Notes under the pieces: model-generated
Told to the model about the DNA's origin: nothing
Database searches by the model: none
The model's input: only the letters and a program-made list of their open reading frames with translations
Shown: positions 8,697 to 47,714 of the stretch, piece by piece
Layout of the letters: each line of letters begins with the position of its first letter
Numbering within the stretch: position 1 is the stretch's first letter
IMG/VR virus record: IMGVR_UViG_3300045988_113246
Source of the DNA: a virus
Reading direction: 5' to 3' (one strand)
DNA: 48,367 bases
Translations under genes and position numbers: made by a program

Positions 8697-8718
8697 CATT
8701 CAAATAAACGACAACGAC

Positions 8719-9285
8719 ATGAAGAAGATTTTTCTATTTCAAAAGACAAACGAGGGTAGCAACCGATTGGTAGGACGCTACGACAGCACAGAGGACGCAC
8801 AAGCAAAGGCTTTGGATTTGGTAGAGAACGATGTAAATATATTCGACTTCTACATCGAAGCACGCGAGTACGAGGACATCACAAACCGCGTAAAGAGTTA
8901 CGCAGACGCTTGTAAGGTTTTGGGCATTGAACCGATGGACGAGGAAGCCATGAAGGCGCAAGGCTTCCGCCCGGACGAGATAGCACGCCGCCAGCTTGAA
9001 ACAATAACCGAAGCACTTAACGAAGGCTGGAAGCCCAACTGGGAAGATACCGACGAATACAAGTACTACCCCTACTTCTACATTGAGGTAAACGAGGTTA
9101 AGACAGAGGACGGGGACACTTCCGGCGCGAGTGCCGGGCTTTCGTACGCGAGTACGTATTACGCGGCTGCGAATACGTCTGCGCACTTCGGCTCTCGGCT
9201 TTGCTTCCACAACCGCGAAACGGCACGCTACGCCGGGCGCACATTTACCGACCTTTACGCACAAATTCTAATTGAGAAGTTATGA
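8719..9285 (+). CDS. Second (remote) DGR target protein, small and signal-less
   Basis: 188 aa from the ATG at 8719. The C-terminal SGASAGLSYASTYYAAANTSAHFGSRLCF is encoded by a sequence matching the DGR template repeat with mismatches at TR adenines plus one T-to-G at the 3' edge. Confidence 0.75.
   Translation: MKKIFLFQKTNEGSNRLVGRYDSTEDAQAKALDLVENDVNIFDFYIEAREYEDITNRVKSYADACKVLGIEPMDEEAMKAQGFRPDEIARRQLETITEALNEGWKPNWEDTDEYKYYPYFYIEVNEVKTEDGDTSGASAGLSYASTYYAAANTSAHFGSRLCFHNRETARYAGRTFTDLYAQILIEKL
9118..9205 (+). repeat. DGR variable region VR2
   Basis: 88 nt align without gaps to TR 44913..45000. I count 15 mismatches, all at TR adenines, plus one T-to-G at TR 44998. It is in the same codon phase as VR1. 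Confidence 0.8.
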
Positions 9286-21471: not shown

Positions 21472-23763
21472 ATGCAAAATCCAAAGAAAATAACTATGCC
21501 GGACAACGTAAGAAACCAGCTTATAATACAACTTCGCGGCTTTGACGCACGCCACTACGCCAATACCGAGCGGTACGCCCGGCAGATAGACCGCGTTTAT
21601 AAGACAGCATGCGACGAATACGCACGATTGGGCGCGAGTTTGGACGCACCCGAAGGTGAAGCCGTGTTTTCCTTCGACAAGTACCCACGCGCACGGAAGC
21701 AAGCGCAGGGCATCATGCAACGGCTCGCAAAGAAGGTGGAAAGCGTTATTACTTCCGGGACGCAAAGCGAGTGGCTGGCGGCGACATACAAGAACGACGC
21801 ATTTTTAGGCTCTATTCTTCGCACTTCCAAGCTAACGAAAGAGGAGTTAGAGCAATACCAAGGCAGGAACTTAGAAGCCCTTAACACCTTCCAACGGCGC
21901 AAGGTTGAGGGCATGGGACTAAGCGAGCGCGTATGGAAACAAGCCGAGGACATGAAAGCCGCCATAGAATTAGGTATAGACGTAGCCATCGGCGACGGAA
22001 GGGACGCGCAGCAGTTAAGCCGCGATTTGCGCAGCTACCTCCAAGAACCTAAACGCCTTTACCGCCGTGTTCGCGACAAGGGCGGCGTATTGAGGTTAAG
22101 CAAAGCAGCCAAAATGTACCATCCGGGGCAAGGCGTTTACAGGAGTTCAGCCAAAAACGCGCAGCGATTGGCACGGACAGAAATAAACATGGCTTACCGC
22201 GAAAGCGAGTTTTTGAGGTGGCAGAAGTTGGACTTTGTTGTAGGTTTGCGCATTTGTTTAAGCAACAACCACACGATAATGAACAGCAAGGGCGAACCCG
22301 TGCCTTTGGTGGATATTTGCGACGAGTTATGGGGCGATTACCCTAAAACGTTCAAGTTTGTAGGCTGGCATCCTCAATGCCGTTGCTACGTTGTACCTAT
22401 ATTGTCAGACTACGACGAGTACAACCAAGACCGCGCAAACCGCTTAAAGGCTATTGTACGCGGCACAGCCTACAAAAGTCTGCCTTCACGTCGTTCTGTG
22501 GTGGACGTTCCGCGCAAGTTCCGGGAATACATAGACAGCATATTAGAACGTTCCAAAGGTTGGAAGTCGCAACCTTACTACATTCGCGACAACTTTGTAG
22601 GCGGCAAGATTGAAGGAGGGCTTAACCCAGTTATTCCAACAAAGACGATGAACACCGTACAGCCCTGCACGGAGTTTGACGGACGTATAGCCATGCTTAA
22701 ACGTTGGGCTTACGCTTTCGGATTAGACCTTTCAAACGTGGATAGCCTACGCACGGCAGGAAACCGAGCCGCGCTATTGGCAGAGTTGGAACGGCTGGAC
22801 GAGATAAGCATGAAGCGGCAGGACGCATGGATAGAAGCGTATAACGAACTTTCCAACTTTGCCAAGACGCAAGCCAACGGCAACAAGGAAATTACCGACA
22901 TTTGCGACAAGGAGCTGCGCGACAACGCCGTTACAACTTCGCATTATTACGGAGATTGCACAAGCAAGCTAAAAGCGGCGTTTAGTGCAGTGGTGGCAAA
23001 ACTTGCCAAGATTAAGGCAGAGGAAGCAAAAATAGAGTATTCCAAGAATATGCCCGAAGCACTACAAAAAGGCAAAGAGTATTTAGAAGGCGAAGATTAC
23101 ATTTTTAGAAAAGATTTCTTCGACCTTCTTAAAGAAAAACCAACGCTTAAAATACACCATACGGGTAAAGGCAGTTACGAAGCAGATAAGGGGAAAACTG
23201 TTGTACTTGATAGCGGAAACCGTATTAAGGCTTCAAGTTGGTATAAGAAAAGCGTAGTTTACCATGAGTTCGGACATGCCATCGCAGACCAGCGCAACCT
23301 ACTTTATACGGATAGTGTGCAAGAACTTCGCAAAAAACAGATAGACAGACTACGCAAACGTACAACAATTAAGACAAAAGAAAAGGTGTTGAATACCAAA
23401 ACATGGGAGTACGAGGAAAAAGAAGTTACCAAACACGTCATGAAGGCTAAGATTATTTCGGATAGGTTAGATAGACTTTACTCCAAGATAAGAAGCATGA
23501 AGCCCGAAACATTCACGAAACGGGGTATAACGCAGGATGATGTAATAGAGCAAATCTGCGCAGTACAAGACACGCTTAAAAGCCTTATAAATTCTGTTGG
23601 CTGGGGACATAGTACCAAATACTTTAACATTCCCGGTCATTCAGAACACGAATACTTAGCACATTGTTTTGAAAACACCTTTGCAGAAAACCGCATATTC
23701 CAAAAGTATTTACCAACGGAATATGCGGAAATGATAGGCTTAATAAAGTCGTTGAAATTCTAA
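21472..23763 (+). CDS. MuF/SPP1 gp7-like head morphogenesis protein with a C-terminal HEFGH metalloprotease-like extension
   Basis: 763 aa. The MuF core ends in GWHPQCRCYVVPI. The roughly 430-aa extension contains HEFGH (23263..23277) and a downstream EHEYLAHCFE. Together these resemble the anthrax lethal factor (ATLF) type zinc site. Confidence 0.7.
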   Translation: MQNPKKITMPDNVRNQLIIQLRGFDARHYANTERYARQIDRVYKTACDEYARLGASLDAPEGEAVFSFDKYPRARKQAQGIMQRLAKKVESVITSGTQSEWLAATYKNDAFLGSILRTSKLTKEELEQYQGRNLEALNTFQRRKVEGMGLSERVWKQAEDMKAAIELGIDVAIGDGRDAQQLSRDLRSYLQEPKRLYRRVRDKGGVLRLSKAAKMYHPGQGVYRSSAKNAQRLARTEINMAYRESEFLRWQKLDFVVGLRICLSNNHTIMNSKGEPVPLVDICDELWGDYPKTFKFVGWHPQCRCYVVPILSDYDEYNQDRANRLKAIVRGTAYKSLPSRRSVVDVPRKFREYIDSILERSKGWKSQPYYIRDNFVGGKIEGGLNPVIPTKTMNTVQPCTEFDGRIAMLKRWAYAFGLDLSNVDSLRTAGNRAALLAELERLDEISMKRQDAWIEAYNELSNFAKTQANGNKEITDICDKELRDNAVTTSHYYGDCTSKLKAAFSAVVAKLAKIKAEEAKIEYSKNMPEALQKGKEYLEGEDYIFRKDFFDLLKEKPTLKIHHTGKGSYEADKGKTVVLDSGNRIKASSWYKKSVVYHEFGHAIADQRNLLYTDSVQELRKKQIDRLRKRTTIKTKEKVLNTKTWEYEEKEVTKHVMKAKIISDRLDRLYSKIRSMKPETFTKRGITQDDVIEQICAVQDTLKSLINSVGWGHSTKYFNIPGHSEHEYLAHCFENTFAENRIFQKYLPTEYAEMIGLIKSLKF

Positions 23764-37311: not shown

Positions 37312-38529
37312 ATGGCAACAGAGAATAACGTTATACTTAACCTTCCGTTTGACGAAGCCAGCGGCTCGCAAGTGGCATACGACTACGCGCAGAACCGCCA
37401 CGACGCAACGGTAACAGATTGTACATTTGTAACGGGCAAGCAGGGCAACTGCATCCATTTTGACGGAAACGGACACGCCGACATAGACAACGACGTAGTA
37501 CGGCTTTCGGGCAACTTCACTATTATAGCGTGGATTAAAGCCGGGAAGTACGAGGACGGATGCACGGCAAGGCGTGTAGGTTTGTTTTGCAATACCGACC
37601 AAGTGGAGGGCTACAGCGAAAGTTGGATAGACATAGAACCCGATAGCTGGGGTTACTACGCGGTCAGAAAGCAGGGCAACGCGGTAAGCATCTATTTAGA
37701 CACGCAGCTAATAGACAGTTTCATCCTGCCGACCACCTTAACGGGAGTAGCTTTAGTGCAAGACATTTACGGCACAGAAAACGGCTACGGCGATTTGGAC
37801 GAGCTGAAAATCTACGATGTTGCGCTAAGTGAAGCCGAGATAGCGGAAGAACTTAACAACATTTCGCAACTTGAATACTTCTTAGGCGGCGTTAGCTTTA
37901 ACGACCTTGATTTGCATGTAGAAAGTTCTACGGGAGTGTTAGACCTTCCAAAGCTAAAGACACCTACCTCCGTAGATTGGGCAGACTACCACGGCGAGGT
38001 AATAGACCTTACCGAAAAACGCTACCAAGCACGCGAAATAACGCTTAACTGCTGGCTTCGCGCAAAGGGTAAGATGGACTTCACGGAACGAGTAAACCGA
38101 GTGTACGACATTCTTAGACAGGACGGAACGCAACGCCTTATGATTTCGATACACCCTACAAAGCCGCTTGTTTACGAGGTTTACTGCGAGGACGGCGTAG
38201 CACCTTCCAAACGTTGGCACAACGATAAGATGATAGGTACTTTTTCGCTGAAGCTAAAAGAACCCGACCCCGTTAAGCGAGTGATACGCCACCAGCGCAT
38301 GAACTACGCCACCAGCGAACTAAAGATAGAGCTAAAGAGCGACAAGATGATTACTATCTATTGGGGCGACGGAGAGGTAACGGCGGACGTTTACGGCGAC
38401 TGCACGGGCGACAACGCGATAAAGCACACCTACGCGGACAACGGCATCTACTACGCCATTGTCGGCGGCGTGATTGAGGAGATAACCGAATTTTCCACTA
38501 ACGGCATCGTAGTATGGAACAAATTATAA
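37312..38529 (+). CDS. Distal tail protein with an N-terminal LamG/concanavalin-like lectin domain
   Basis: 405 aa. The N-terminus LPFDEASGSQVAYDY...GNCIHFDGNGHADI...FTIIAWIK is LamG-like. The C-terminal half fits the Dit position. Confidence 0.6.
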   Translation: MATENNVILNLPFDEASGSQVAYDYAQNRHDATVTDCTFVTGKQGNCIHFDGNGHADIDNDVVRLSGNFTIIAWIKAGKYEDGCTARRVGLFCNTDQVEGYSESWIDIEPDSWGYYAVRKQGNAVSIYLDTQLIDSFILPTTLTGVALVQDIYGTENGYGDLDELKIYDVALSEAEIAEELNNISQLEYFLGGVSFNDLDLHVESSTGVLDLPKLKTPTSVDWADYHGEVIDLTEKRYQAREITLNCWLRAKGKMDFTERVNRVYDILRQDGTQRLMISIHPTKPLVYEVYCEDGVAPSKRWHNDKMIGTFSLKLKEPDPVKRVIRHQRMNYATSELKIELKSDKMITIYWGDGEVTADVYGDCTGDNAIKHTYADNGIYYAIVGGVIEEITEFSTNGIVVWNKL

Positions 38530-41500
38530 TTTACCACCCGGACGGGACGGCAATACCGCTGATAAGCAAGAAGAATGTTAGCGTAGTGAGTAAGGCGACA
38601 CAGAAAACCGCCTTACTTTCTGATGACGTTATAAGTATTACCGTTTCGTCCGCCGTGCCTTTGGATTTGCGTATAGGCGACACGGCACGCATTTACGGCA
38701 AGCCCTACAAACTTAACCAACTGCCCGAACCAACGAAGAACGGCGAACGCCGCTATTCCTACGAGTTACGGCTGGAGGGTTTGCAGTACGATTTAATAGA
38801 TGTTCATTACCATCTGCCCGAAAACGCATACGGTGAAACGTTCTACGCAGACCTTAAAGGGCATTTAGCCGTATTGGTTTGGAACATTAACCGCATTTAC
38901 CCGAACAAATGGGCGTTAGGCGAGTTCCCGGAAGATACGGACTACAAGAACATCACGAACAGCGAGAAGAACGCCCTCCAAGTGTTGCAGGAACTTTGCA
39001 GCGACTACGGCGTAGAATTTGAGATTACCACAGACGGAAAGCACCACACGCTCAACGTAAGGAAGCAAGTAGGCATAACCCACGCCTTTACGCTTCGTTT
39101 TGGGCGCGGTAAGGGCTTGTACCAGCTTGCACGTAAGAACGTGAACAACGCCGGGATAACAAACCGCCTTTACGTTTACGGAGGTACGGAGAACTTAGGA
39201 AGCAATTACGGACATACAAAGCTATGCCTTCCGGGTACTACGCGCCTTTCTTCATTTCTTGAAGATAAGGAATCTATCGGTATTTACGGAGTGAAGGAGG
39301 GCGAAAAGAACTATTCAGACATAAAGCCCCAGCGTGTAGGCACGGTTACGGCTTTGGGTAAGGACGTTATTACTTTCGTGGATGAAACGATGTTCGACCT
39401 TAACACGAAGGATAAGGACGGCAAAAGTACAAAGTACCTTATAGCAGGAACAAACGCTAAGATTAAGTTTGAAAGCGGACAACTTGCCGGGTACGAATTT
39501 GATTTGCACACCTACGATCATGCTACGCACACATTCGTAATAAACAAGTTTACGGACGATAACGGCATGGTTTTCCCGTCAGAGGAAACGGCATCTTTCC
39601 AAATTCAGAAGGGCGACAAGTATAGCATCTTTGACATAAACCTCCCCGACGAGTACAGAACAAAAGCCGAAAAGGAGTTAGCCGAGGAAGCCACGAAATA
39701 TCTCCCAACAGTCAGCCAGCCGCAAGTAAGCTACAAACTATCGCTTACTGAAGGTTTCTTTACGCAGCTTTGGGGCAAGGACACGGCAACGGAGGTTTTA
39801 CACGTCGGCGACTTCATAAAGATAGAGGACGAGCAAATAGGCGTAAGCAAAGCCGTAAGGATAACGCAGATAGACCGCAACCTCTTGAAACGCCACAGCT
39901 ACGACATCACACTAAGCGACACCGTAACCAAGAGTACAACGGTAAAGGTTATAAACAACTTGCAGGAGATTAACGAAACGATTGCTATAAACAAATTGGC
40001 AGACCCGACCAAGGCTCGCAGGAAGTGGAGGGCAACCCAAGAACTTCTAAGCATGGTATTCGACCCCGAAGGCGACTATTACAGCGAGAAAATAAAACCG
40101 CTTTCCATTGATACGCAGATGTTGAGCGTAGGCGCGAAAAGTACGCAGTTCACGCTGTTAAACGTTACCTTCCAACCGAACTATAACGGCGACGCTAATA
40201 CGCTTTACGTTTCGCCCGGACGATTGGCACACTACGCCATAGACCCCGAAGGCGTAAAGTATTGGCTATTGGACGGTGCAACGTTTGCCGAACTTGACGC
40301 GAATACGGCATACTACATTTACGCCCGATGCTCAACAACGGAAGCAAGCGGCGTTATAACGCTTTCCACAACGGCAAAGGCAGTAAGTAGCGAAGTTGGC
40401 TATTATAACTTTCTTGTTGGTGTGCTTAACTCCGTGGTAACGGACGCGGACGGCGGCAGACCCGGAAGGCTCGTTAGCCTTACTTACGGAAGTACAACCG
40501 TAAACGGGCGTTTTGTCAGAACGGGACGCATTGAAAGCAACGGCGGCGGTAAGTGTTACTTCGATTTGGATAACGACGAGATAGGCGGCGTTATTCATTT
40601 TGTCGGCAGCGACGGAACAATAAAGAACGTTTCAGACGTTGATGACAAGACCAACGAAGTAAAGGACTACATAAACAACACGCTTCCCGGTATCCTTAAC
40701 GGCATACAAGAGCAGATAGACGGAGTTATAGAACAATGGTTTTACACTACCGACCCTTCACCGCTTTACGAAAGTCCTAACGCCGAAGGCGCAGAGCCTA
40801 ACAGCGAATGGACTACAAACGAGGAGAAAGAAGAGCATTTAGGCGACTTGTACTATAACACCGAAACGGGCAAAGTGTGGCGATACGTCAAGCGTTTATG
40901 GCGACCAAGACCGGGAGCGGCTGCGGCAACGCGATACTGCTGGCAGGAGCTACAAGACACCGAGCTATCCCAAGCGTTGGCACTTGCAAAGGACGCTTTA
41001 GCGACAGCCAACAAGAAGGCGCAGATATTTGTAGCCACGCCGACAACGCCGTACTACGTCGGCGACTTGTGGGTACAAGGTTCTACGGGCGACATCCTAC
41101 GATGCAAAACCGAAAGGCTTGAAGGCTCGTATAGTTCTTCCGATTGGGAAAAGGCAAGCAAGTACACCGACAACAGCGAGCTGACCAACTTTATAAACAA
41201 CAACTTCGCGAACACGGTAAGCGACCTAACCAACCAAATAGACGGTAAAATAGAAAGTTGGTTTCAGACAACCGACCCTGCAAGTAATTGGACAGCCACA
41301 GATAAGGCTAAACACGTCGGCGATATGTGGTACAACACCCTAACGAAGGAACTAAAGCGATACACGATGACAGTAGTAACGCTTCCAAGTTCTACAATCG
41401 CGCGTATAGTATATTCGTGGAATAAGATAGAGGACAAGACCGCGCTGGACGCATACGACGCAGCCAGCAAAGCACAGGACACGGCAGACGGCAAACGCCA

Positions 41501-42656
41501 AGTTTTCGTAAGTCAGCCTTACCCTCCCTACGATATAGGCGACCTTTGGCTAACGGGCGACAGCACGAACGGACAGCTGAAGCGATGCGCGACCGCGAGG
41601 GCTACGGGCTCTTTTGTGGCTAACGATTGGGTAATAGCGACATACTACGACAACACGCAGACCACAATAGACGGCGGCATCGTAACAGCCGGAACGGTAC
41701 AGCTTGCTAACGGCAATTCGCAAAGTATTGTAGCTGGCATTACGGGCGGCGAAACAGAAGCAGCCAACACCAGCGAAGAACGTAAGGTTAGGATTTGGGC
41801 AGGAGCGAGCAAGGAAAACCGATTTACCGCGCCCTTCCGGGTGCTTCAAGATGGTAGCTTTGTTGCGTCGAAAGGCAAGATTACGGGCGAGATAAACGCG
41901 AACACTGGAAGTATAGGCGGTTTTAACATCGCATACGGACACATAGGCGCAGAAACAGAAAGCGGCTCACGCGGTGGAGGTTTGTCTATATACAACGATT
42001 TTATAAATCTTGCAAACAGCGACCGCCGCGTATCATTAAGTTGTGATAGCGTGTTTCCTTCCTCTTCGGCTCTTATTGGTGTAGGCTACTTTGAAAACAA
42101 GGTAAGCCAGCCATACAACACGAATTATGGTATTTCCGTATTCGTGTCGGGCGGTTTGGTAAACATCGCTTTAGCGGCACATGGTGCAGTAGTAAGCGAA
42201 AGTTACGCGGTAGATTACGGAATAGCCAAAGTAACGCCTTCCGTTAATACCTGTCTTGTACCGGGCGACCTTACGAAGCCTACGATATTCAAGATTATGG
42301 CAAAGTTCATTTACAGCAATAGCGGTATAGGACTACCGACGCGCGACACCGTTTGCGAAGAATTAGGAATATCCAGCAGCGGAACGCCATTTGCGGTAAG
42401 GATAGTTATCATTTGCGACAGAAGCAGCACGCAAACCGGGTACGTTACGGGGCGCAATACCTTTGTTACGGGCAAGAACGCGGCAGGACAAACGACCTAT
42501 CCGATGAATACCAACCAATACCCATACCGCCTAAACAACAACGGAGGTAACGAAACGGATAAATGGAACATGGCAAAGGGCGACATACGCGAATTTATGT
42601 TAGTGTGGGACGGCAGCAGCGAATATTACGCATATTTGCTCAACATACGCGAATAA
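38514..42656 (+). CDS. Tail tip / host-specificity protein (Tal-like) with internal tandem repeats
   Basis: 1380 aa, downstream of Dit. It has two repeats of about 130 aa sharing IDGxIExWFxTTDP...GDxWYNT...Y(Y/D)(V/I)GDLW...L(R/K)RC. Confidence 0.7.
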   Translation: MEQIIIYHPDGTAIPLISKKNVSVVSKATQKTALLSDDVISITVSSAVPLDLRIGDTARIYGKPYKLNQLPEPTKNGERRYSYELRLEGLQYDLIDVHYHLPENAYGETFYADLKGHLAVLVWNINRIYPNKWALGEFPEDTDYKNITNSEKNALQVLQELCSDYGVEFEITTDGKHHTLNVRKQVGITHAFTLRFGRGKGLYQLARKNVNNAGITNRLYVYGGTENLGSNYGHTKLCLPGTTRLSSFLEDKESIGIYGVKEGEKNYSDIKPQRVGTVTALGKDVITFVDETMFDLNTKDKDGKSTKYLIAGTNAKIKFESGQLAGYEFDLHTYDHATHTFVINKFTDDNGMVFPSEETASFQIQKGDKYSIFDINLPDEYRTKAEKELAEEATKYLPTVSQPQVSYKLSLTEGFFTQLWGKDTATEVLHVGDFIKIEDEQIGVSKAVRITQIDRNLLKRHSYDITLSDTVTKSTTVKVINNLQEINETIAINKLADPTKARRKWRATQELLSMVFDPEGDYYSEKIKPLSIDTQMLSVGAKSTQFTLLNVTFQPNYNGDANTLYVSPGRLAHYAIDPEGVKYWLLDGATFAELDANTAYYIYARCSTTEASGVITLSTTAKAVSSEVGYYNFLVGVLNSVVTDADGGRPGRLVSLTYGSTTVNGRFVRTGRIESNGGGKCYFDLDNDEIGGVIHFVGSDGTIKNVSDVDDKTNEVKDYINNTLPGILNGIQEQIDGVIEQWFYTTDPSPLYESPNAEGAEPNSEWTTNEEKEEHLGDLYYNTETGKVWRYVKRLWRPRPGAAAATRYCWQELQDTELSQALALAKDALATANKKAQIFVATPTTPYYVGDLWVQGSTGDILRCKTERLEGSYSSSDWEKASKYTDNSELTNFINNNFANTVSDLTNQIDGKIESWFQTTDPASNWTATDKAKHVGDMWYNTLTKELKRYTMTVVTLPSSTIARIVYSWNKIEDKTALDAYDAASKAQDTADGKRQVFVSQPYPPYDIGDLWLTGDSTNGQLKRCATARATGSFVANDWVIATYYDNTQTTIDGGIVTAGTVQLANGNSQSIVAGITGGETEAANTSEERKVRIWAGASKENRFTAPFRVLQDGSFVASKGKITGEINANTGSIGGFNIAYGHIGAETESGSRGGGLSIYNDFINLANSDRRVSLSCDSVFPSSSALIGVGYFENKVSQPYNTNYGISVFVSGGLVNIALAAHGAVVSESYAVDYGIAKVTPSVNTCLVPGDLTKPTIFKIMAKFIYSNSGIGLPTRDTVCEELGISSSGTPFAVRIVIICDRSSTQTGYVTGRNTFVTGKNAAGQTTYPMNTNQYPYRLNNNGGNETDKWNMAKGDIREFMLVWDGSSEYYAYLLNIRE

Positions 42657-42710
42657 CAGAATTTACGAAAGAGCAAAGGGGAAAAGTAGATTTCTAAGGC
42701 AAAAAGTAGA

Positions 42711-42744
42711 TTTGTACGCGAAAATTCACGGCTTCGCGTACAAA
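42711..42744 (+). terminator. Hairpin after the tail operon (terminator or operator)
   Basis: 12-bp stem tttgtacgcgaa / ttcgcgtacaaa with a 10-nt loop. No U-tract. It overlaps the first bases of the inverted 11-mer element. Confidence 0.4.
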
Positions 42745-42764
42745 CACTTCGCCAACATTTCGCA
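42741..42764 (-). promoter_or_regulatory. Tandem 11-mer element, inverted (copy 3 of 3)
   Basis: The reverse complement reads GCGAAATGTT-GGCGAAGTGTT-TG. The 17-nt core TGTTGGCGAAGTGTTTG is identical to 26969..26985. It lies 27 nt upstream of the -7 box of the DGR operon. Confidence 0.5.
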
Positions 42765-42791: not shown

Positions 42792-42799
42792 TACCTTTG
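42792..42799 (+). promoter_or_regulatory. Candidate -7 box TACCTTTG (DGR target operon)
   Basis: Matches TAnnTTTG, 28 nt upstream of the ATG at 42827. Confidence 0.45.
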
Positions 42800-42826
42800 C
42801 AAAGCAATTATTAAAAAAGACAGATT

Positions 42827-43087
42827 ATGCAGAACAGAAACGGCGACCAAGTGAGCGCACAAATATCAGTAGCCGGGAAGGTGGACTTTTCCGGCGGCAG
42901 CTTCCGCAAAGATACCCCGTTTTGTTTGAAGAACGACGGAGAAACGGCGGTAACGCTTGAAGTGAACCTTTGGGGGATGCCCGAAGGCGAGTTTATAAGC
43001 ACACGATTTGAAACAGGCTGGAATCCCGAAATTATACGCGAGGTAAAAGCCACAAGTTTAACTAACGCCCTTGTTTGGGGCTATTAA
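42827..43087 (+). CDS. Hypothetical small protein, first gene of the DGR operon
   Basis: 86-aa ORF. Confidence 0.45.
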   Translation: MQNRNGDQVSAQISVAGKVDFSGGSFRKDTPFCLKNDGETAVTLEVNLWGMPEGEFISTRFETGWNPEIIREVKATSLTNALVWGY

Positions 43088-43098
43088 AACATACTATT

Positions 43099-44424
43099 AT
43101 GGGCATATTCATAGGTATAGGCAACACGAAGCCTACATTTCCTTACGACTACTATTATGGCGTGAAGATTGACTTAAACGTAGCAGACCCGGCACTCGTC
43201 AGAGTAGGCAGACCCGAACTGCACGTTTCGTTACCCGTTCAGTCATTGATGCGCCGCTGCTTGATTAACGACGAAGGCAAGGTAACGGCATACTTGCACC
43301 CGACTGACAGCACCAAGACGGACATGGGAGCAGCCGCCGACCTTTCGGGATCCTCCGGCATGGTCATGGTAGAGATACCCAAGCACTACCGTAAATTCGA
43401 GTTCGACGGGCAGACCGTAACCGCGCTTATTTCATTGTATCCCCTTCCGGGCTTCCACGTTGTACCGAAGATGTACCGAAGCGCATACGAAGCCACGGTA
43501 GACCGCACGGCATCGGCAACGCCAAAACTTGCAAGCGTGGTAAACACTACCGCAGCCTTCCGAGGTGGAAACAATAACGCCGCCTACGACGGAACGTATA
43601 GAACCTTCCTCGGACTTCCGGCTACGCAGATTTCATTAACCAACTTCCGCAAGTACGCACGCAACAGAGGAGCGGCAGGGCTTAACGGCGCAGGGTGGAA
43701 CTGCGACCTTTACGCCGCGCAGCTTGCAACATATTGGCTTTACGTTATTGAGTACGCCAACCTTAACAGCCAAAAGGCATTTAACGCAGAGCCAACAAGC
43801 GAGGGGTACAAGCAGGGAGGACTCGGCGACGGCGTTACTATATGGAACGGCGATTGGAACACCTACAACGGCAATTACCCAATTATTCCATGTGGCGTAA
43901 CAAATTCGTTGGGCAACCGCACGGGAGTAGTAGAATACACCGTAAGCAACGGCGACAAGATTAGCAAGACCTTTAACGTACCTTCATACCGAGGAATAGA
44001 AAACCCATTCGGGCATATTTGGTCATGGACAGACGGCTGCAAGTGTGAGATACAGAGCGAAACGGACGGAGGGCTGGCAAAGTTCTACGTTTGCGATGAC
44101 CCGGCAAAGTTCCAAGATACCAGCTACAACGACTACCAGCAGCGCGGACTATTACCGCGTAATGAAGGTTACGTTAAGCGCATGATGATAGGTGAGTACG
44201 GAGAGAACATGCCGACAGAGTTAGGCGGCAATTCCGCAACCTACTACTGCGACTATTACTATACCAATATACCAACGTCCGGGACAGCTATGCGCGGTGT
44301 CCTGTTCGGTGGTAGCGCGTATAACGGCGCGTCTGCCGGGCTTTCGTTCGCGTTTACGAATCACGCGGCTACGTCTACGTCTGCGCACTTCGGCTCTCGG
44401 CTTTGCTTTATTCCCGAAGCCTAA
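43099..44424 (+). CDS. DGR target protein 1 (tail-fibre/receptor-binding candidate with a C-type-lectin/FGE-like C-terminus)
   Basis: 441 aa from the ATG at 43099. The C-terminus GVLFGGSAYNGASAGLSFAFTNHAATSTSAHFGSRLCFIPEA is encoded by VR1. Confidence 0.8.
   Translation: MGIFIGIGNTKPTFPYDYYYGVKIDLNVADPALVRVGRPELHVSLPVQSLMRRCLINDEGKVTAYLHPTDSTKTDMGAAADLSGSSGMVMVEIPKHYRKFEFDGQTVTALISLYPLPGFHVVPKMYRSAYEATVDRTASATPKLASVVNTTAAFRGGNNNAAYDGTYRTFLGLPATQISLTNFRKYARNRGAAGLNGAGWNCDLYAAQLATYWLYVIEYANLNSQKAFNAEPTSEGYKQGGLGDGVTIWNGDWNTYNGNYPIIPCGVTNSLGNRTGVVEYTVSNGDKISKTFNVPSYRGIENPFGHIWSWTDGCKCEIQSETDGGLAKFYVCDDPAKFQDTSYNDYQQRGLLPRNEGYVKRMMIGEYGENMPTELGGNSATYYCDYYYTNIPTSGTAMRGVLFGGSAYNGASAGLSFAFTNHAATSTSAHFGSRLCFIPEA
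44296..44407 (+). repeat. DGR variable region VR1
   Basis: 112 nt align without gaps to TR 44889..45000. I count 17 mismatches at TR adenines and one T-to-G at TR 44998. Confidence 0.85.
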
Positions 44425-44448
44425 CACGCAACGATAACGTTAAACACG

Positions 44449-44483
44449 ACCCAACCGCCGCGCTCCATATTCGGCGGTTGGGT
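44449..44483 (+). other. Perfect 12-bp hairpin downstream of VR1
   Basis: acccaaccgccg / cggcggttgggt with an 11-nt loop. No U-tract. It lies 25 nt after the target stop codon. Confidence 0.5.
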
Positions 44484-44504
44484 TCAATAAAAATACATTC
44501 AGCT

Positions 44505-44864
44505 ATGAACGATAACAACAATAACAGACCAAACCAGCAGGAGGACGACGGAAGCCTCTCCTTTTTGGCAATACCGCAGGACGAAGGAAACAAGCACTTC
44601 AACTGCCGGGAAACAACACAGCAGAAACTAATAAACCTTACGTTTTGGGTTTGCGACTATATCGAAGGAGTAAAAACCAAGTTCGGCGCGGAACGCTTTT
44701 TAGTAAAGATTAAGCGCAACCGCGACGACAAGGACGCGGATGCCGAAAAGTTCTTTACCAATTCAACGGAAATAAAGTACGTTCTTAAAGAGATTAAGAA
44801 GCGCAACGCATTTCCGCGCAGAGTAACCATGAGGGCAAGCGGCACACGCTACTACTTTGAATAA
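44505..44864 (+). CDS. DGR accessory ORF in the Avd position (not recognisably Avd-like)
   Basis: 119 aa from MNDNNNNRPNQQ. It sits between VR1 and TR. The sequence (..FWVCDYIEGVKTKFGAERFLVKIK..RRVTMRASGTRYYFE) does not read as a four-helix bundle. Confidence 0.55.
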   Translation: MNDNNNNRPNQQEDDGSLSFLAIPQDEGNKHFNCRETTQQKLINLTFWVCDYIEGVKTKFGAERFLVKIKRNRDDKDADAEKFFTNSTEIKYVLKEIKKRNAFPRRVTMRASGTRYYFE

Positions 44865-44888
44865 AATATAAAGGTTGTTTGTCCTTTG

Positions 44889-45000
44889 GGTGTCCTGTTC
44901 GGTGGTAACGCGAATAACAGCGCGAATGCCGGGCTTTCGTACGCGAATACGAATAACGCGGCTACGAATACGAATGCGAACATCGGCTCTCAGCTATTCT
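44889..45000 (+). repeat. DGR template repeat (TR)
   Basis: Non-coding copy of VR1/VR2. Read in the VR frame it contains 10 AAY codons (GVLFGGNANNSANAGLSYANTNNAATNTNANIGSQLF). Confidence 0.85.
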
Positions 45001-45124
45001 GATAACATTTAGCAAAACAATACAAGGGCAAAGACCACGCCAACCAAAAGGCGAAAAACAGTAAACATTAACGGGATTTGGTAGGGCTACCGAAGAACCC
45101 CACTTAATCAGCAAAGCAACAACT

Positions 45125-46159
45125 ATGAAAAGGTTAGGCAACCTATACGACAAAATAATAAGCATGGATAATTTGCGACTTGCGGACGAACGCGCCCGTA
45201 AGGGCAAAACCCATTCTTACGGCGTGAGGGTACACGACAAGCACGCCGAAGCCGACCTTTTGGCTTTGCACGAAGCATTGAAAGCAGGAACTTACAAGAC
45301 TTCGGAATATAGTATTTTCACGATATACGAACCAAAGGAACGTATTATTTACCGCCTTCCATACTTTCCCGACCGCATCGTACACCACGCGATAATGAAC
45401 ATTTTGGAGCCTGTATGGGTGTCAGTATTCACGGCAGACACTTATAGCTGCATAAAAGGGCGAGGAATACAGGCGGCAGCGGATAAGGTACGGAAGGCGA
45501 TAGACCGGGACAAGCCCGGCTGCGCGTATTGTCTGAAGATAGACATACGCAAGTTTTACCCTTCAATAGACCACGACGTATTAAAGGCTATTGTTCGCCG
45601 GAAGATTAAGGACACACGGCTGCTTAAACTTTTGGACGAGATAATAGACAGCGCGGAGGGCTTGCCGATTGGTAACTACCTAAGCCAATACTTAGCAAAC
45701 CTCGTATTAACTTACTTCGACCATTGGGTAAAGGAGGTTAGACTGGTAAAGTATTACTTCCGATACGCCGACGATATTGTAGTATTGAACAGCAGCAAGA
45801 AGTATTTACGCGAATTGCTTGCCGAGTTTGAAACCTACCTTACGGGCTTGAAGCTGCATGTAAAGGACAATAAGCAGATTTTCCCGGTAGCGAAAGACCA
45901 CAAGGACAGGCACGGGCGCGGTATAGACTTCTTAGGCTTTGTGTTCTACCACAACGAAACACGGCTAAGAAAGCGTATTAAGCAGAACCTTTGCCGGAAG
46001 GTAGCCAAGTTGAGGAAAAGGAACAAGCCGCTAACTAACGAGGAGTTCAAGCAGCGCATCGCGTCATGGTGGGGATGGGCAAAACACAGCGATAGCGAGT
46101 ATTTTATTAACAAGTTAAATTCAAAGATTAAACCGTATGAAATCAAGTTCAAACGTTAG
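45125..46159 (+). CDS. DGR-type reverse transcriptase
   Basis: 344 aa. IGNYLSQ (45668..45688) is the DGR-specific [I/V]GxxxSQ motif. YADD lies at 45764..45775. There is a 124-nt spacer after TR. Confidence 0.9.
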   Translation: MKRLGNLYDKIISMDNLRLADERARKGKTHSYGVRVHDKHAEADLLALHEALKAGTYKTSEYSIFTIYEPKERIIYRLPYFPDRIVHHAIMNILEPVWVSVFTADTYSCIKGRGIQAAADKVRKAIDRDKPGCAYCLKIDIRKFYPSIDHDVLKAIVRRKIKDTRLLKLLDEIIDSAEGLPIGNYLSQYLANLVLTYFDHWVKEVRLVKYYFRYADDIVVLNSSKKYLRELLAEFETYLTGLKLHVKDNKQIFPVAKDHKDRHGRGIDFLGFVFYHNETRLRKRIKQNLCRKVAKLRKRNKPLTNEEFKQRIASWWGWAKHSDSEYFINKLNSKIKPYEIKFKR

Positions 46160-46520
46160 ACCCGACATTATCCAAGATTTGGGTAACGGGTCATTCCACT
46201 ATAACTATAATATTGTGGAAGAGAAGGTAGCAGACGAGGAGGTAGGCGAAAAGACCGTTTACAACTTCGATACGGTGCAAGTGTGGGAGAAGCCGACCTA
46301 CGAAAACCTTACGCGAGCAGTCATCCGTAACGAGGTGGACGAAAACGAGGAGTTCTCACTCATCAACGACTACTACGCCGCGCAGTTGGGGCTGGAAACC
46401 GACAGCGCACGCAAAGCGAAGGCAGTAACGGAGTACAAAGACCATCTTAGCCGCGTGATTGCCATTAAGACGATGGTACGCGCGGACTTGCAGACCGTAG
46501 GGTATAACCAAACAGAGTAA
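46137..46520 (+). CDS. Hypothetical acidic protein
   Basis: 127-aa ORF overlapping the RT stop by 23 nt. Confidence 0.45.
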   Translation: MKSSSNVRPDIIQDLGNGSFHYNYNIVEEKVADEEVGEKTVYNFDTVQVWEKPTYENLTRAVIRNEVDENEEFSLINDYYAAQLGLETDSARKAKAVTEYKDHLSRVIAIKTMVRADLQTVGYNQTE

Positions 46521-47135: not shown

Positions 47136-47714
47136 ATGGCAAACATCAAGATTTTAGCCCCCTTCATACTTGCATGGGAGGGCGGTTTTGCTAACGACCC
47201 GGTAGACCGGGGAGGAGCGACCAACAAGGGCGTAACGCTTGCAACGTGGAAACAAGTAGGCTACGACAAGGACGGTGACGGCGATATAGACGTAGACGAC
47301 CTTAAAAAGATTACCACAGACGATGCGGTAAACGTGGTTATGAAGCCCCACTTTTGGGACAGGTGGAAAGCTGACAAAATTACAAGTCAGTCGGTAGCCA
47401 ACATTCTCGTAGATTGGGTATGGGCTTCCGGCAAGCACGGAATAACCAACGTACAGCGTTTGCTGGGCGTGAAGGCGGACGGGATAGTAGGCGACAAGAC
47501 GATAGCCGCACTTAACGCCAAAGAGCCGCGCCAGCTGTTCGCGGCGATAAAGAAAGCCCGTGTTTCCTTCATTGAGGGCATCATCAGAGCCAACCCGAAG
47601 CAAAAGAAGTTCAGAAACGGCTGGCTTAACCGCCTCGCCTGTATTCAGTACGGCAGCTTGAAATATACCACAAACGGCAAAACGCTAACTACATTTCAAT
47701 TTACGGACGTATGA
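47136..47714 (+). CDS. Endolysin, GH108 lysozyme plus PG_binding_3-like domain
   Basis: [24 protein letters not shown] is the GH108 signature. The C-terminal part carries [12 protein letters not shown]. Confidence 0.85.

Follow-up and report, generated by a model that had tools for sequence, protein, structure and literature searches.

A probably active, avd-less diversity-generating retroelement with two targets in a siphovirus-like prophage of Bacteroidales

Introduction

Diversity-generating retroelements (DGRs) have been catalogued in the thousands. In the BPP-1 system the elements follow the order mtd-avd-TR-brt (Architecture B of Wu et al., 2018: avd-TR-RT), and Avd is a basic four-helix-bundle pentamer of about 128 aa. 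Other lineages are built differently. The DGRs of Lineage 3 are avd-less and have Bacteroidetes-associated hosts, and the CH1 accessory proteins, which are 160–169 aa in length and acidic (pI 4.7 ± 0.2), flank avd-less Bacteroides DGRs (Wu et al., 2018). In the Hankyphage, a 64-aa ORF has been suggested as Avd-like (PMC6199706). Among the RT motifs of Rfam, only RT-10 was tied to a DGR by the authors, and the others were left unassigned (Weinberg et al., 2017; PMC5737381); RT-17 is listed in Rfam without a function. How avd-less DGR lineages work has been an open question since the 2018 survey, and the locus described here provides a concrete candidate. As a DGR it is ordinary, and near-identical copies are already present in IMG/VR and in Bacteroidales genomes. 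Here, we describe the element in a stretch of viral DNA of 48,367 nt (the window; IMG/VR record IMGVR_UViG_3300045988_113246). We consider it very likely that this is an active DGR of the avd-less Bacteroidales-phage/crAss type, carried by a temperate siphovirus-like prophage of about 48 kb from gut Bacteroidales.

The cassette and its repeats

An earlier, sequence-only reading had placed a complete DGR at 42792-46159, between tail and lysis genes. It is indeed flanked on one side by a Tal-like tail gene (38514-42656) and on the other by a GH108 endolysin gene (47136-47714), and the adenine-specific differences, the DGR-like reverse transcriptase (RT) and the turnover of the VRs bear out the reading as a complete DGR. 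The start of the interval takes in a separate 86-aa ORF, and the element is wider than the interval, since a remote VR2 lies at 9118-9205 and an RT-linked ORF at 46137-46520. The core parts are as follows.

43099..44424, + strand: target gene 1, a tail protein of 441 aa whose last ~40 codons are VR1
44296..44407, + strand: VR1, with a variable zone at about 44314-44389
44390..44407 plus T44408, + strand: IMH of VR1, with the 3' end TCGGCTCTCGGCTTTGCT, the same in every copy of VR1 and VR2
44505..44864, + strand: accessory gene, 119 aa, basic (pI 9.1), phrog_19665
44889..45000, + strand: TR, with 26 adenines in the variable zone
44983..45000 plus G45001, + strand: IMH* in TR, TCGGCTCTCAGCTATTCT
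45033..45122, + strand: putative structured RNA of the spacer, a divergent copy of RT-17 (Rfam RF03020), from Rfam and covariation
45125..46159, + strand: DGR reverse transcriptase, 344 aa, RVT_1 E = 2.8e-20, phrog_1423

TR and VR1 form an ungapped alignment of 112 nt, as had been proposed, and their homology breaks off sharply at both edges. The exact alignment holds 18 mismatches, 17 of them at TR adenines and precisely at the positions listed earlier; there is no multitude of mismatches at other bases, the sole one being T44998>G. With 28 A in the 112 nt of TR, the hypergeometric probability of at least 17 of 18 mismatches falling on A is 6.4e-12. Three of the differences are fixed (A44992>G, A44996>T, T44998>G), being identical in the VR1 copies of all relatives and in VR2, and they mark IMH versus IMH* and not mutagenesis. 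Of the 17 adenine mismatches, this leaves 15 that are of the mutagenesis type. The IMH at the 3' end of the VR is thereby distinct from IMH*, a difference to which a role in homing may be ascribed. Read in the VR frame, TR carries the ten AAY codons claimed for it, and 27 of its 28 adenines occupy codon positions 1 or 2. No TR codon can be mutated to a stop codon, and with the adenines so placed about 1e15 protein variants are possible per target.

VR1 lies at the 3' end of the coding sequence of target gene 1 and ends 17 nt before the stop codon. The gene starts at 43099 (ATG) or 43075 (TTG) and belongs to phrog_5302, 'tail protein' (E = 7e-136). It has no Pfam match and no PDB sequence match, and its product is 36% identical to the DGR target of the crAss-like phage cr52_1. 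The latter is annotated sulfatase/Mtd-like, and this homology is a hint of a lectin-type fold for target 1; Pfam and PDB sequence searches, even with a profile, found no C-type-lectin fold in either target.

Downstream of VR1, and upstream of the target gene, three further features were found.

42792..42799, + strand: Bacteroidota-type -7 promoter box (TAnnTTTG), TACCTTTG, found by pattern search 28 nt upstream of orf86
42827..43087, + strand: orf86, small and acidic (pI 4.8), directly upstream of target gene 1
44448..44484, + strand: GC-rich 13-bp hairpin, found by folding, 41 nt downstream of VR1 and past the target stop codon

The 86-aa ORF (phrog_26422, function unannotated) lies upstream of the target in many relatives and is absent from one clade (L029-L073); it probably belongs to the tail module rather than to the core of the DGR. 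The box before it is a possible, if weak, candidate for the promoter of an orf86-target operon: 58 such boxes were found in the window against 41 expected, a mild enrichment, and the pattern search found none between the stop of target gene 1 and the start of the RT. Many relatives retain the hairpin, one of them (L022) with a compensatory change, and it may be a terminator, an attenuator or a counterpart of the post-VR hairpin of BPP-1. It is not a general requirement, since there is none after VR2 and none in the clade L074-L081.

A remote second target

8716..9285, + strand: target gene 2, 189 aa, acidic (pI 4.6), phrog_11581
9118..9205, + strand: VR2, 88 nt, in the same codon register as VR1 and ending in the same IMH

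The adenine specificity extends to a second repeat, VR2, which differs from TR by 15 mismatches on TR adenines and by the T>G common with VR1 (15 of 16 on adenines, against 17 of 18 for VR1). In the relatives, VR2 varies at TR-A sites only, and among 41 homologues of target 2 hypervariability is limited to residues ~133-158. VR2 ends 80 nt before the stop codon. Its gene sits in the early recombination/replication module, with SbcC-like, MBL-hydrolase and DnaC-like genes as neighbours, 35.7 kb upstream of the cassette, or ~12.4 kb downstream of it if the genome is circular. The structure model of target 2 has a pLDDT of 56. A remote target in the early module means that surveys confined to RT-adjacent VRs miss part of phage DGR diversification.

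Accessory protein, spacer RNA and linked ORFs

No Avd-type family is Pfam-detectable in the window, including its 37 small ORFs. The ORF at the place of avd matches no Pfam or NCBIfam family even at E <= 10. Its protein is 35% identical to residues 339-433 of the Hankyphage RT (E = 7e-12), and RT-fused relatives of the domain occur in the Hankyphage and in other RTs. The AF2 model (pLDDT 82) has the topology beta1-beta2-beta3-alpha-beta4-beta5, that is, five strands and one main helix. The best BFVD matches of this model are domains of viral RT proteins, and against the PDB it has no significant match (best E = 0.2). The predicted topology, together with weak SSB-type matches, suggests a fold that may be called OB-like. 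Compared by description, this protein does not fit CH1 (119 aa, pI 9.1).

The spacer between TR and RT is 124 nt long, as stated in the earlier reading. It appears to be a divergent copy of Rfam RT-17, with which it shares, in order, GACC, a hairpin, an A-run, UGGUAG, a variable stem, CGAA and AAAGCA; compared with the consensus, the copy in the window has a longer hairpin loop and a shorter inner stem. The window sequence scores 25.7 bits, below the gathering score of 40.4; of 20 related loci, 12 reach that score, and their matches occupy the corresponding place between TR and RT. Covariation supports both of its helices, P1 (45038-45041 pairing with 45050-45053) and P2 (45073-45078 pairing with 45096-45100, enclosing UGGUAG...CGAA), and the window sequence fits both.

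Two ORFs follow the RT.

46137..46520, + strand: orf127, 127 aa, acidic (pI 4.71), overlapping the RT stop codon
46524..47129: orf201, 44% identical to the gene right after the RT of cr52_1

The first of these comes right after the RT in practically all related loci, even in clades in which the cassette lies elsewhere in the tail module. It belongs to an unnamed family (phrog_11557) and has no Pfam match. Set against the description of CH1, its pI and context fit and its size of 127 aa is shorter. It is a candidate for an extra DGR-linked gene.

The accessory ORF and orf127 could instead be ordinary tail-module genes, for example chaperones of a receptor-binding protein, that take no part in retrohoming. 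We think this unlikely, though it deserves some weight: neither gene has an annotated function, crAss-like DGRs whose RTs are 50-57% identical have no accessory gene, and the presence of genes common to related phages is weak evidence of a DGR function (Wu et al., 2018). However, Hankyphage-type elements carry the accessory domain covalently joined to the RT, the accessory gene keeps its place between the VR of the target and TR throughout the 140-odd loci, even at 39% identity, and orf127 stays with the RT where the position of the cassette relative to the Tal-like gene changes. We therefore favor the reading in which the accessory protein belongs to the DGR; most likely it would replace Avd, binding to the RT and to the spacer RNA or cDNA. 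The domain is not universally required in this RT lineage, since the closest RTs, those of crAss-like phages, have neither the free-standing gene nor an RT extension.

A classic BPP-1-type DGR, with the ORF between VR and TR encoding a divergent, pentameric four-helix-bundle Avd, is very improbable. The ORF does have the position and orientation of avd, a similar length (119 vs 128 aa) and a basic pI, and Avd proteins are poorly conserved (PMC5758913). Against it stand the lack of any family match, the confident beta-rich model with no helical bundle, the homology to the C-terminal extension of the Hankyphage RT and the structural matches to RT-attached domains. Of the BPP-1 paradigm invoked for this locus in the sequence-only reading, the gene order (target, accessory ORF, TR, spacer, RT) thus stands, and the accessory protein as an Avd homologue does not.

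Variation among relatives

The five-part module is kept in 80 viral and 62 genomic loci, and the hosts of the related loci are Bacteroidales. In 63 unique TR/VR1 pairs from such loci, TR adenines are substituted in 54.6% of cases and other bases in 0.54%. The median share of A changed per pair is 54%, which matches the density of about 50% reported for experimentally active DGRs (bioRxiv 10.1101/2024.11.15.621889) and counts in favor of an active element. Heterogeneity of the VRs across related genomes is present, in that they vary while TR stays constant: an identical TR occurs with four distinct VR1 sequences, and it is shared by L002, L004, L006 and L007, whose VRs differ (L002 and L004 are a duplicate pair). 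The lineage of this DGR is demonstrably active; judged by its relatives, the copy in the window would be active too.

One might argue that the element is an inactive relic whose TR/VR differences were fixed long ago and whose cassette has ceased to diversify its targets; in the relatives compared, other parts of the sequence differ as well, by ~4%. We give this very little credence, as no ORF is broken and the RT has its catalytic motifs, VR1 is different in each of the four relatives with the identical TR except the duplicate pair, and VR2 turns over as well. In addition, each pair shows changes at about half of its A sites while non-A sites are nearly untouched, which resembles fresh homing and not slow decay.

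The reverse transcriptase

The motifs noted earlier are in place, IGNYLSQ at residues 182-188 (45668-45688) and YADD at residues 214-217 (45764-45775), in agreement with the DGR-clade pattern ([I/L]GxxxSQ and YxDD); the assignment is based on database matches and these motifs. The best PDB match of the RT is Brt of BPP-1 (8ub7, E = 5e-41), while a group II RT reaches only 1.6e-20, and the closest annotated RTs are DGR RTs of crAss-like phages (46-57% identity). One of them, from crAssphage LMMB, is 46% identical and was placed in Lineage 3, with which our locus also has in common the absence of Avd and Bacteroidales hosts, a comparison that on the side of the RT is one of pairwise identity. 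By its PDB and NCBIfam matches the RT belongs with Brt, the prototype DGR RT, and apart from the enzymes of retrons and group II introns.

Some GenBank relatives of the RT carry the label 'retron-type'. A retron or group II intron RT next to an unrelated duplication can practically be dismissed despite such labels, because the best NCBIfam model (group II intron RT/maturase) and the retron and DRT models that also match all score far under their curated cut-offs (e.g. 129.8 vs 300), the PDB match to Brt surpasses those to group II or retron RTs by 20 orders of magnitude, scanning the region with Rfam gave the RT-17-like spacer and no intron or retron RNA (no msr/msd), and a plain duplication cannot give adenine-only mismatches.

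Proposed mechanism

In the mechanism that we propose for this DGR, TR would be transcribed together with the adjoining RT-17-type spacer RNA, and the RT would copy TR into cDNA, misincorporating opposite the 26 template adenines. The cDNA would then replace the homologous stretch in both target genes (VR1 and VR2), each of which has the same 19-nt IMH at its end, and the three fixed differences in IMH* presumably keep TR from being overwritten. The basic OB-like protein would stand in for Avd, binding the RT and the spacer RNA or the cDNA. The RT, the accessory protein and the TR-spacer RNA make up a defined three-part system for in vitro reconstitution.

A further step is possible, and on balance we regard it as doubtful: the OB-like protein and the RT-17 spacer, perhaps with orf127, might form an Avd-independent priming and targeting apparatus and so a mechanistically distinct class of DGR that is common in gut Bacteroidales phages. 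Target 2 might, in the same proposal, be a diversified intracellular binder (e.g. a counter-defence or host-takeover factor) and not a receptor-binding protein of the virion.

Comparison with known systems

With BPP-1 the locus shares the order of target, small basic accessory ORF, TR, structured spacer and RT, a VR at the 3' end of a tail protein gene, TR adenines in AAY codons and an IMH/IMH* pair, and among solved structures Brt comes closest to the RT. It differs in that the accessory protein is not Avd but of another fold and family, and the spacer RNA is of the RT-17 type, whereas BPP-1 has RT-10 (PMC5737381). There are also two targets here, one of them remote, and the post-VR hairpin is 41 nt off and missing at VR2.

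The Bacuni phages of Bacteroides uniformis are likewise siphovirus-like and carry a DGR with an adjacent and a distant target and an accessory ORF between VR and TR; their accessory protein, however, is reported as Avd (PMC8143477), and a tblastn search with the accessory protein of the window (E <= 1e-5) returned no Bacuni record among its matches. The crAss-like DGRs (cr52_1, crAssphage LMMB) have the closest RTs, a homologous target, no avd and a position at the end of the tail module. In contrast to the window, their cassettes run directly from target to TR to RT, with neither an accessory ORF nor an RT extension (PMC7290462), and the phages are of another virion type, cr52_1 also recoding TAG.

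The Hankyphage (Bacteroides phage p00, BK010646) carries a DGR of a Bacteroidales temperate phage as well, again without a Pfam-detectable Avd. Its RT is 34% identical to that of the window and the accessory domain is common to both (35% identity). The Hankyphage is transposable and Mu-like, its target has 2,225 aa, no homologue of orf127 follows its RT, and its 64-aa ORF is unrelated to the accessory protein of the window. In the Hankyphage the domain makes up the C-terminal ~95 residues of a 434-aa RT, whereas in the window it is a separate gene upstream of TR. A basic, OB-like domain, part of the RT in some elements and encoded precisely in the position of avd in others, is found beside a covariation-supported RT-17-type RNA.

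Identity and Activity of the Retroelement

The sequence-only reading had called this cassette a diversity-generating retroelement (DGR), and this call is right, each of the tests by which it could be refuted having turned out in its favor. The components discussed here are the following.

8716-9285: target gene of the remote variable repeat, 189 aa, acidic (phrog_11581); VR2 (9118-9205) lies near its 3' end
43099-44424: target gene 1, tail protein; VR1 (44296-44407) lies at its 3' end
44505-44864: accessory ORF, 119 aa, pI 9.1 (phrog_19665), in the avd position
44889-45000: template repeat (TR)
45125-46159: reverse transcriptase (RT)
46137-46520: orf127, 127 aa, acidic, pI 4.71 (phrog_11557), overlapping the RT stop codon
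46524-47129: orf201, 201 aa, with an N-terminal membrane helix (phrog_38864)

The RT matches Pfam RVT_1 and carries both motifs attributed to it, IGNYLSQ at residues 182-188 and YADD at residues 214-217. A kinship with retron or group II intron enzymes is disfavored: by far the closest solved relative in the PDB is chain 8ub7 (E = 5e-41 vs 1.6e-20 for a group II intron RT and 6e-18 for retron-type RTs), which tblastn showed to be 100% identical to brt of Bordetella phage BPP-1, and the NCBIfam group II, retron, and DRT models all score the RT far under their curated cut-offs.

Megablast of the cassette against GenBank phages gave no match, and relatives were reached via protein searches only, yielding a comparison set of 80 viral contigs, each with a relative of the accessory ORF. 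In practically all of these the corresponding place holds a VR/TR pair whose mismatches are confined to adenines of the downstream copy. Heterogeneity of the VR across related genomes, whose complete absence the sequence-only reading would have taken as the mark of an inactive relic, was found in four contigs whose TR equals that of the window (L002, L004, L006, and L007), as their VR1s differ from the window's and from each other, except for the duplicate pair L002/L004. Among 63 unique TR/VR1 pairs, 54.6% of TR adenines (882/1615) and 0.54% of the other TR sites (25/4639) are substituted; the median share of adenines changed per pair is 54%, which is as dense as the mutagenesis reported from Bacteroides and Bordetella DGRs of experimentally demonstrated activity (bioRxiv 10.1101/2024.11.15.621889). 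These relatives do not form a clone, being about 96% identical overall and divergent in the C-terminus of the Tal-like tail gene (38514-42656) as well, and the argument for activity therefore rests on adenine specificity and not on the VR as the sole variable spot.

The TRs of two contigs, L012 and L014 (4386-4497 in both), differ from those of the sister contigs L011 and L013 at at least 10 positions, all of them adenines replaced by other bases. In these contigs the TR gives the impression of having itself been mutagenised or converted from a VR, which IMH*, the TR counterpart of the VR 3' end (IMH), is normally expected to prevent.

Template and Variable Repeats

TR and VR1 form a direct repeat, 593 nt apart, and their similarity is gone immediately beyond both edges. 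The claimed ungapped alignment of 112 nt (44889-45000 vs 44296-44407) was reproduced, as were all 17 mismatches on TR adenines, position by position, and the sole other mismatch, T44998>G, which is the 18th. Since 28 of the 112 nt of the TR are adenines, the probability that at least 17 of 18 mismatches would hit an A is 6.4e-12. Read in frame with the target ORF, the TR does contain the 10 AAY codons counted before, 27 of its 28 adenines are in codon position 1 or 2, and for none of its codons can mutation lead to a stop.

Three of the mismatches, A44992>G, A44996>T, and T44998>G, are the same in all VR1 of all relatives and in VR2. They are not products of mutagenesis and represent the fixed difference between the IMH of the VRs (TCGGCTCTCGGCTTTGCTT) and the IMH* of the TR (TCGGCTCTCAGCTATTCTG). 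The truly variable zone is TR 44907-44982, in which 16 codons with 26 adenines have a capacity of about 4.5e15 DNA variants and 2.4e15 protein variants. Gene conversion was considered as the source of the last 32 nt common to VR1 and VR2 and set aside because other relatives differ at 44973-44982; a fixed IMH combined with selection on a structural FGSRLCF motif would be the simpler reading of this common 3' end.

A GC-rich 13-bp hairpin lies 3' of VR1 (44448-44484) and shows a compensatory change in one relative. Such a hairpin is missing after VR2 and in one clade of relatives, and it was therefore rejected as a generally required cruciform of the BPP-1 type. A scan for sigma-70 promoters and terminators performed no better on the sequence than on shuffles.

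A Second Target in the Early Region

When the whole window was scanned with the TR while ignoring adenine positions, VR2 was found on the same strand, as the counterpart of TR 44913-45000, with 15 adenine mismatches, the same T>G change, and the codon register of VR1. The neighbors of its target are early genes encoding an SbcC-like recombination protein, an MBL-fold hydrolase, and a DnaC-like loader. Across nine related contigs, including five that are also DGR-locus contigs, VR2 differs at TR-A sites only and the IMH is kept, and in an alignment of 41 homologues hypervariability of the target is limited to residues ~133-158, with the remainder nearly invariant. The two targets have no common sequence beyond 29 VR-encoded residues. 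Remote second targets are known, for instance from the Bacuni phages of B. uniformis (PMC8143477), and metagenomic surveys concede that such targets are missed (PMC8144416).

Separately, the N-terminal ~60 residues of the VR2 target (window 8716-8900) exist in two distinct allelic forms among otherwise ~96-98% identical relatives, a variation that is independent of the DGR. The AlphaFold model of this protein has a pLDDT of 56, falling below 50 across the VR half, and at this low confidence its Foldseek matches to FERM and transthyretin are meaningless. For the VR1 target, a candidate for a C-type-lectin fold, neither the single sequence nor a 14-sequence profile had a match in the PDB.

The Accessory Protein

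The sequence-only reading had described a BPP-1-like layout with an accessory ORF. The avd position is indeed occupied, but the protein in it is not Avd, as it has no Pfam or NCBIfam match and its model lacks a helical bundle. Searches against Pfam and NCBIfam gave no match even at E <= 10, and a Pfam scan of 37 other small ORFs in the window detected no member of the Avd/23S-rRNA-IVP-type family. In GenBank phages, tblastn found the accessory protein only inside the annotated RT of Hankyphage (Bacteroides phage p00) and its relatives: its counterpart in the 434-aa Hankyphage RT is residues 339-433 (35% identity, E = 7e-12), while the 344-aa RT of the window aligns with residues 1-325. A profile search of 1.84 billion representative proteins yielded 206 representatives, most of them free-standing and 100-120 aa long, several being proteins of 433-583 aa in which the domain is C-terminal to a YxDD-containing RT. 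The 64-aa Hankyphage ORF that has been proposed to be Avd-like (PMC6199706) is unrelated to the accessory protein.

The AlphaFold model (pLDDT 82, pTM 0.71) has the order beta1-beta2-beta3-alpha-beta4-beta5. Among predicted viral structures it resembles domains of viral RT proteins most closely (E = 7e-7 to 7e-4, TMq ~0.6), with weak matches to phage SSBs coming next. Foldseek found nothing significant in the PDB (best E = 0.2); the weak top matches are ssDNA binders of the OB/SSB type and only suggestive. The sole PDB match of the sequence profile, a designed protein, was dismissed as chance.

Published classes of DGR accessory genes are Avd, HRDC, MSL, and CH1, and the 2018 survey that describes them further reports a Lineage 3 that lacks avd, C-terminal extensions without explanation on about 20% of DGR RTs, and the tentative genes PAG1-4 (PMC5758913). 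The accessory protein is outside the four classes and seems to represent one of these RT extensions as a separate protein. This domain, subject to fusion with and fission from the RT, is a candidate substitute for Avd.

The Spacer RNA

The spacer between TR and RT, confirmed to be 124 nt long, matches three of the Rfam 'RT' motifs below threshold, with RT-17 scoring best (25.7 bits vs a gathering score of 40.4). RT-17 reaches or exceeds its gathering score at exactly the same position in 12 of 20 related loci. In an alignment of 38 dereplicated spacers, the window's included, hairpin P1 has compensatory changes in three of four pairs with none broken, and one pair of P2 occurs as GC, AU, or UA across all 38. 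The two-helix structure is 92% paired, compared to 81% in column shuffles (0/500 reach 92%) and at most 53% with sliding partners. Of the RT motifs, only RT-10 was linked to a DGR by its authors, namely to that of BPP-1, with the speculation that others may belong to DGRs or retrons (PMC5737381). In this Bacteroidales DGR lineage the spacer RNA would be RT-17, with a divergent copy under the gathering score in the window.

Linked Genes and Genomic Context

Directly after the RT, orf127 is present in essentially every viral or genomic locus (~140, 29-99% identity), and it stays with the RT also in a clade that has the cassette upstream, not downstream, of the Tal-like gene. None of the databases searched gives it a name or a domain; it may be an extra DGR component, perhaps a relative of the CH1 of Wu et al., to whose description it corresponds in acidity and context but not in length. 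The post-RT ORF of Hankyphage is unrelated to it. The association of orf86 (42827-43087) and orf201 with the cassette is only patchy.

The window represents the ~48-kb genome of a temperate siphovirus-like phage, whose genes run in the order integrase, early genes, methyltransferases, terminase, portal, major head protein, tape measure, Dit, Tal-like, DGR, and GH108 endolysin. An inverted repeat with a 14-bp stem (42710-42745), just past the Tal-like stop and beside a tandem duplication of 20 nt (42676-42715), probably serves as terminator of the tail operon, upstream of a promoter-like TACCTTTG box at 42792. A 763-aa protein of the head-morphogenesis type (21472-23763) has a further match to a PHROG with the annotation Bxa ADP-ribosyltransferase (E = 2.6e-71) and may combine a minor head protein with a toxin-like domain.

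Members of the accessory family are encoded in 62 species-representative genomes, almost all from Bacteroidales; among them are large scaffolds from cultured Alistipes putredinis, Phocaeicola coprocola, Muribaculaceae, and Barnesiella. This set also shows the five-part module with adenine-only mismatches, and prophages of Alistipes putredinis DSM 17216 and Phocaeicola coprocola DSM 17136 carry this module. Many module-bearing contigs of ~13-57 kb (L125-L127, L129, L136-L139, and others) are found in MAGs labelled Clostridia, Christensenella, Bifidobacteriaceae, and Acholeplasma; mis-binning of phage contigs into unrelated genomes is the most likely explanation.

Comparison With Known Systems

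Near-identical copies of the element are already in public collections. Of specialist interest are the accessory domain as a candidate Avd substitute with its RT fusion and fission, the proposed identification of a DGR spacer with Rfam RT-17, the constant linkage of orf127, and the second target in the early region. Present in only some siphovirus relatives, orf201 is 44% identical (E = 1e-62) to the gene directly 3' of the DGR RT of the crAss-like phage cr52_1, and seems to be a patchy gene common to very different phages, alongside the RT. The cr52_1 locus itself (L123, NC_055888; 4116-4739 and 1495-2736) contains TAG codons in frame, both in the DGR target and in the post-RT gene, consistent with stop-codon recoding in that phage. 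The crAss-like phages have the closest RTs (50-57% identity), yet neither the accessory gene nor the RT extension (PMC7290462), so that not every part of the RT lineage can require the accessory domain. The element is a member of the avd-less DGRs of Bacteroidales and crAss-type phages.
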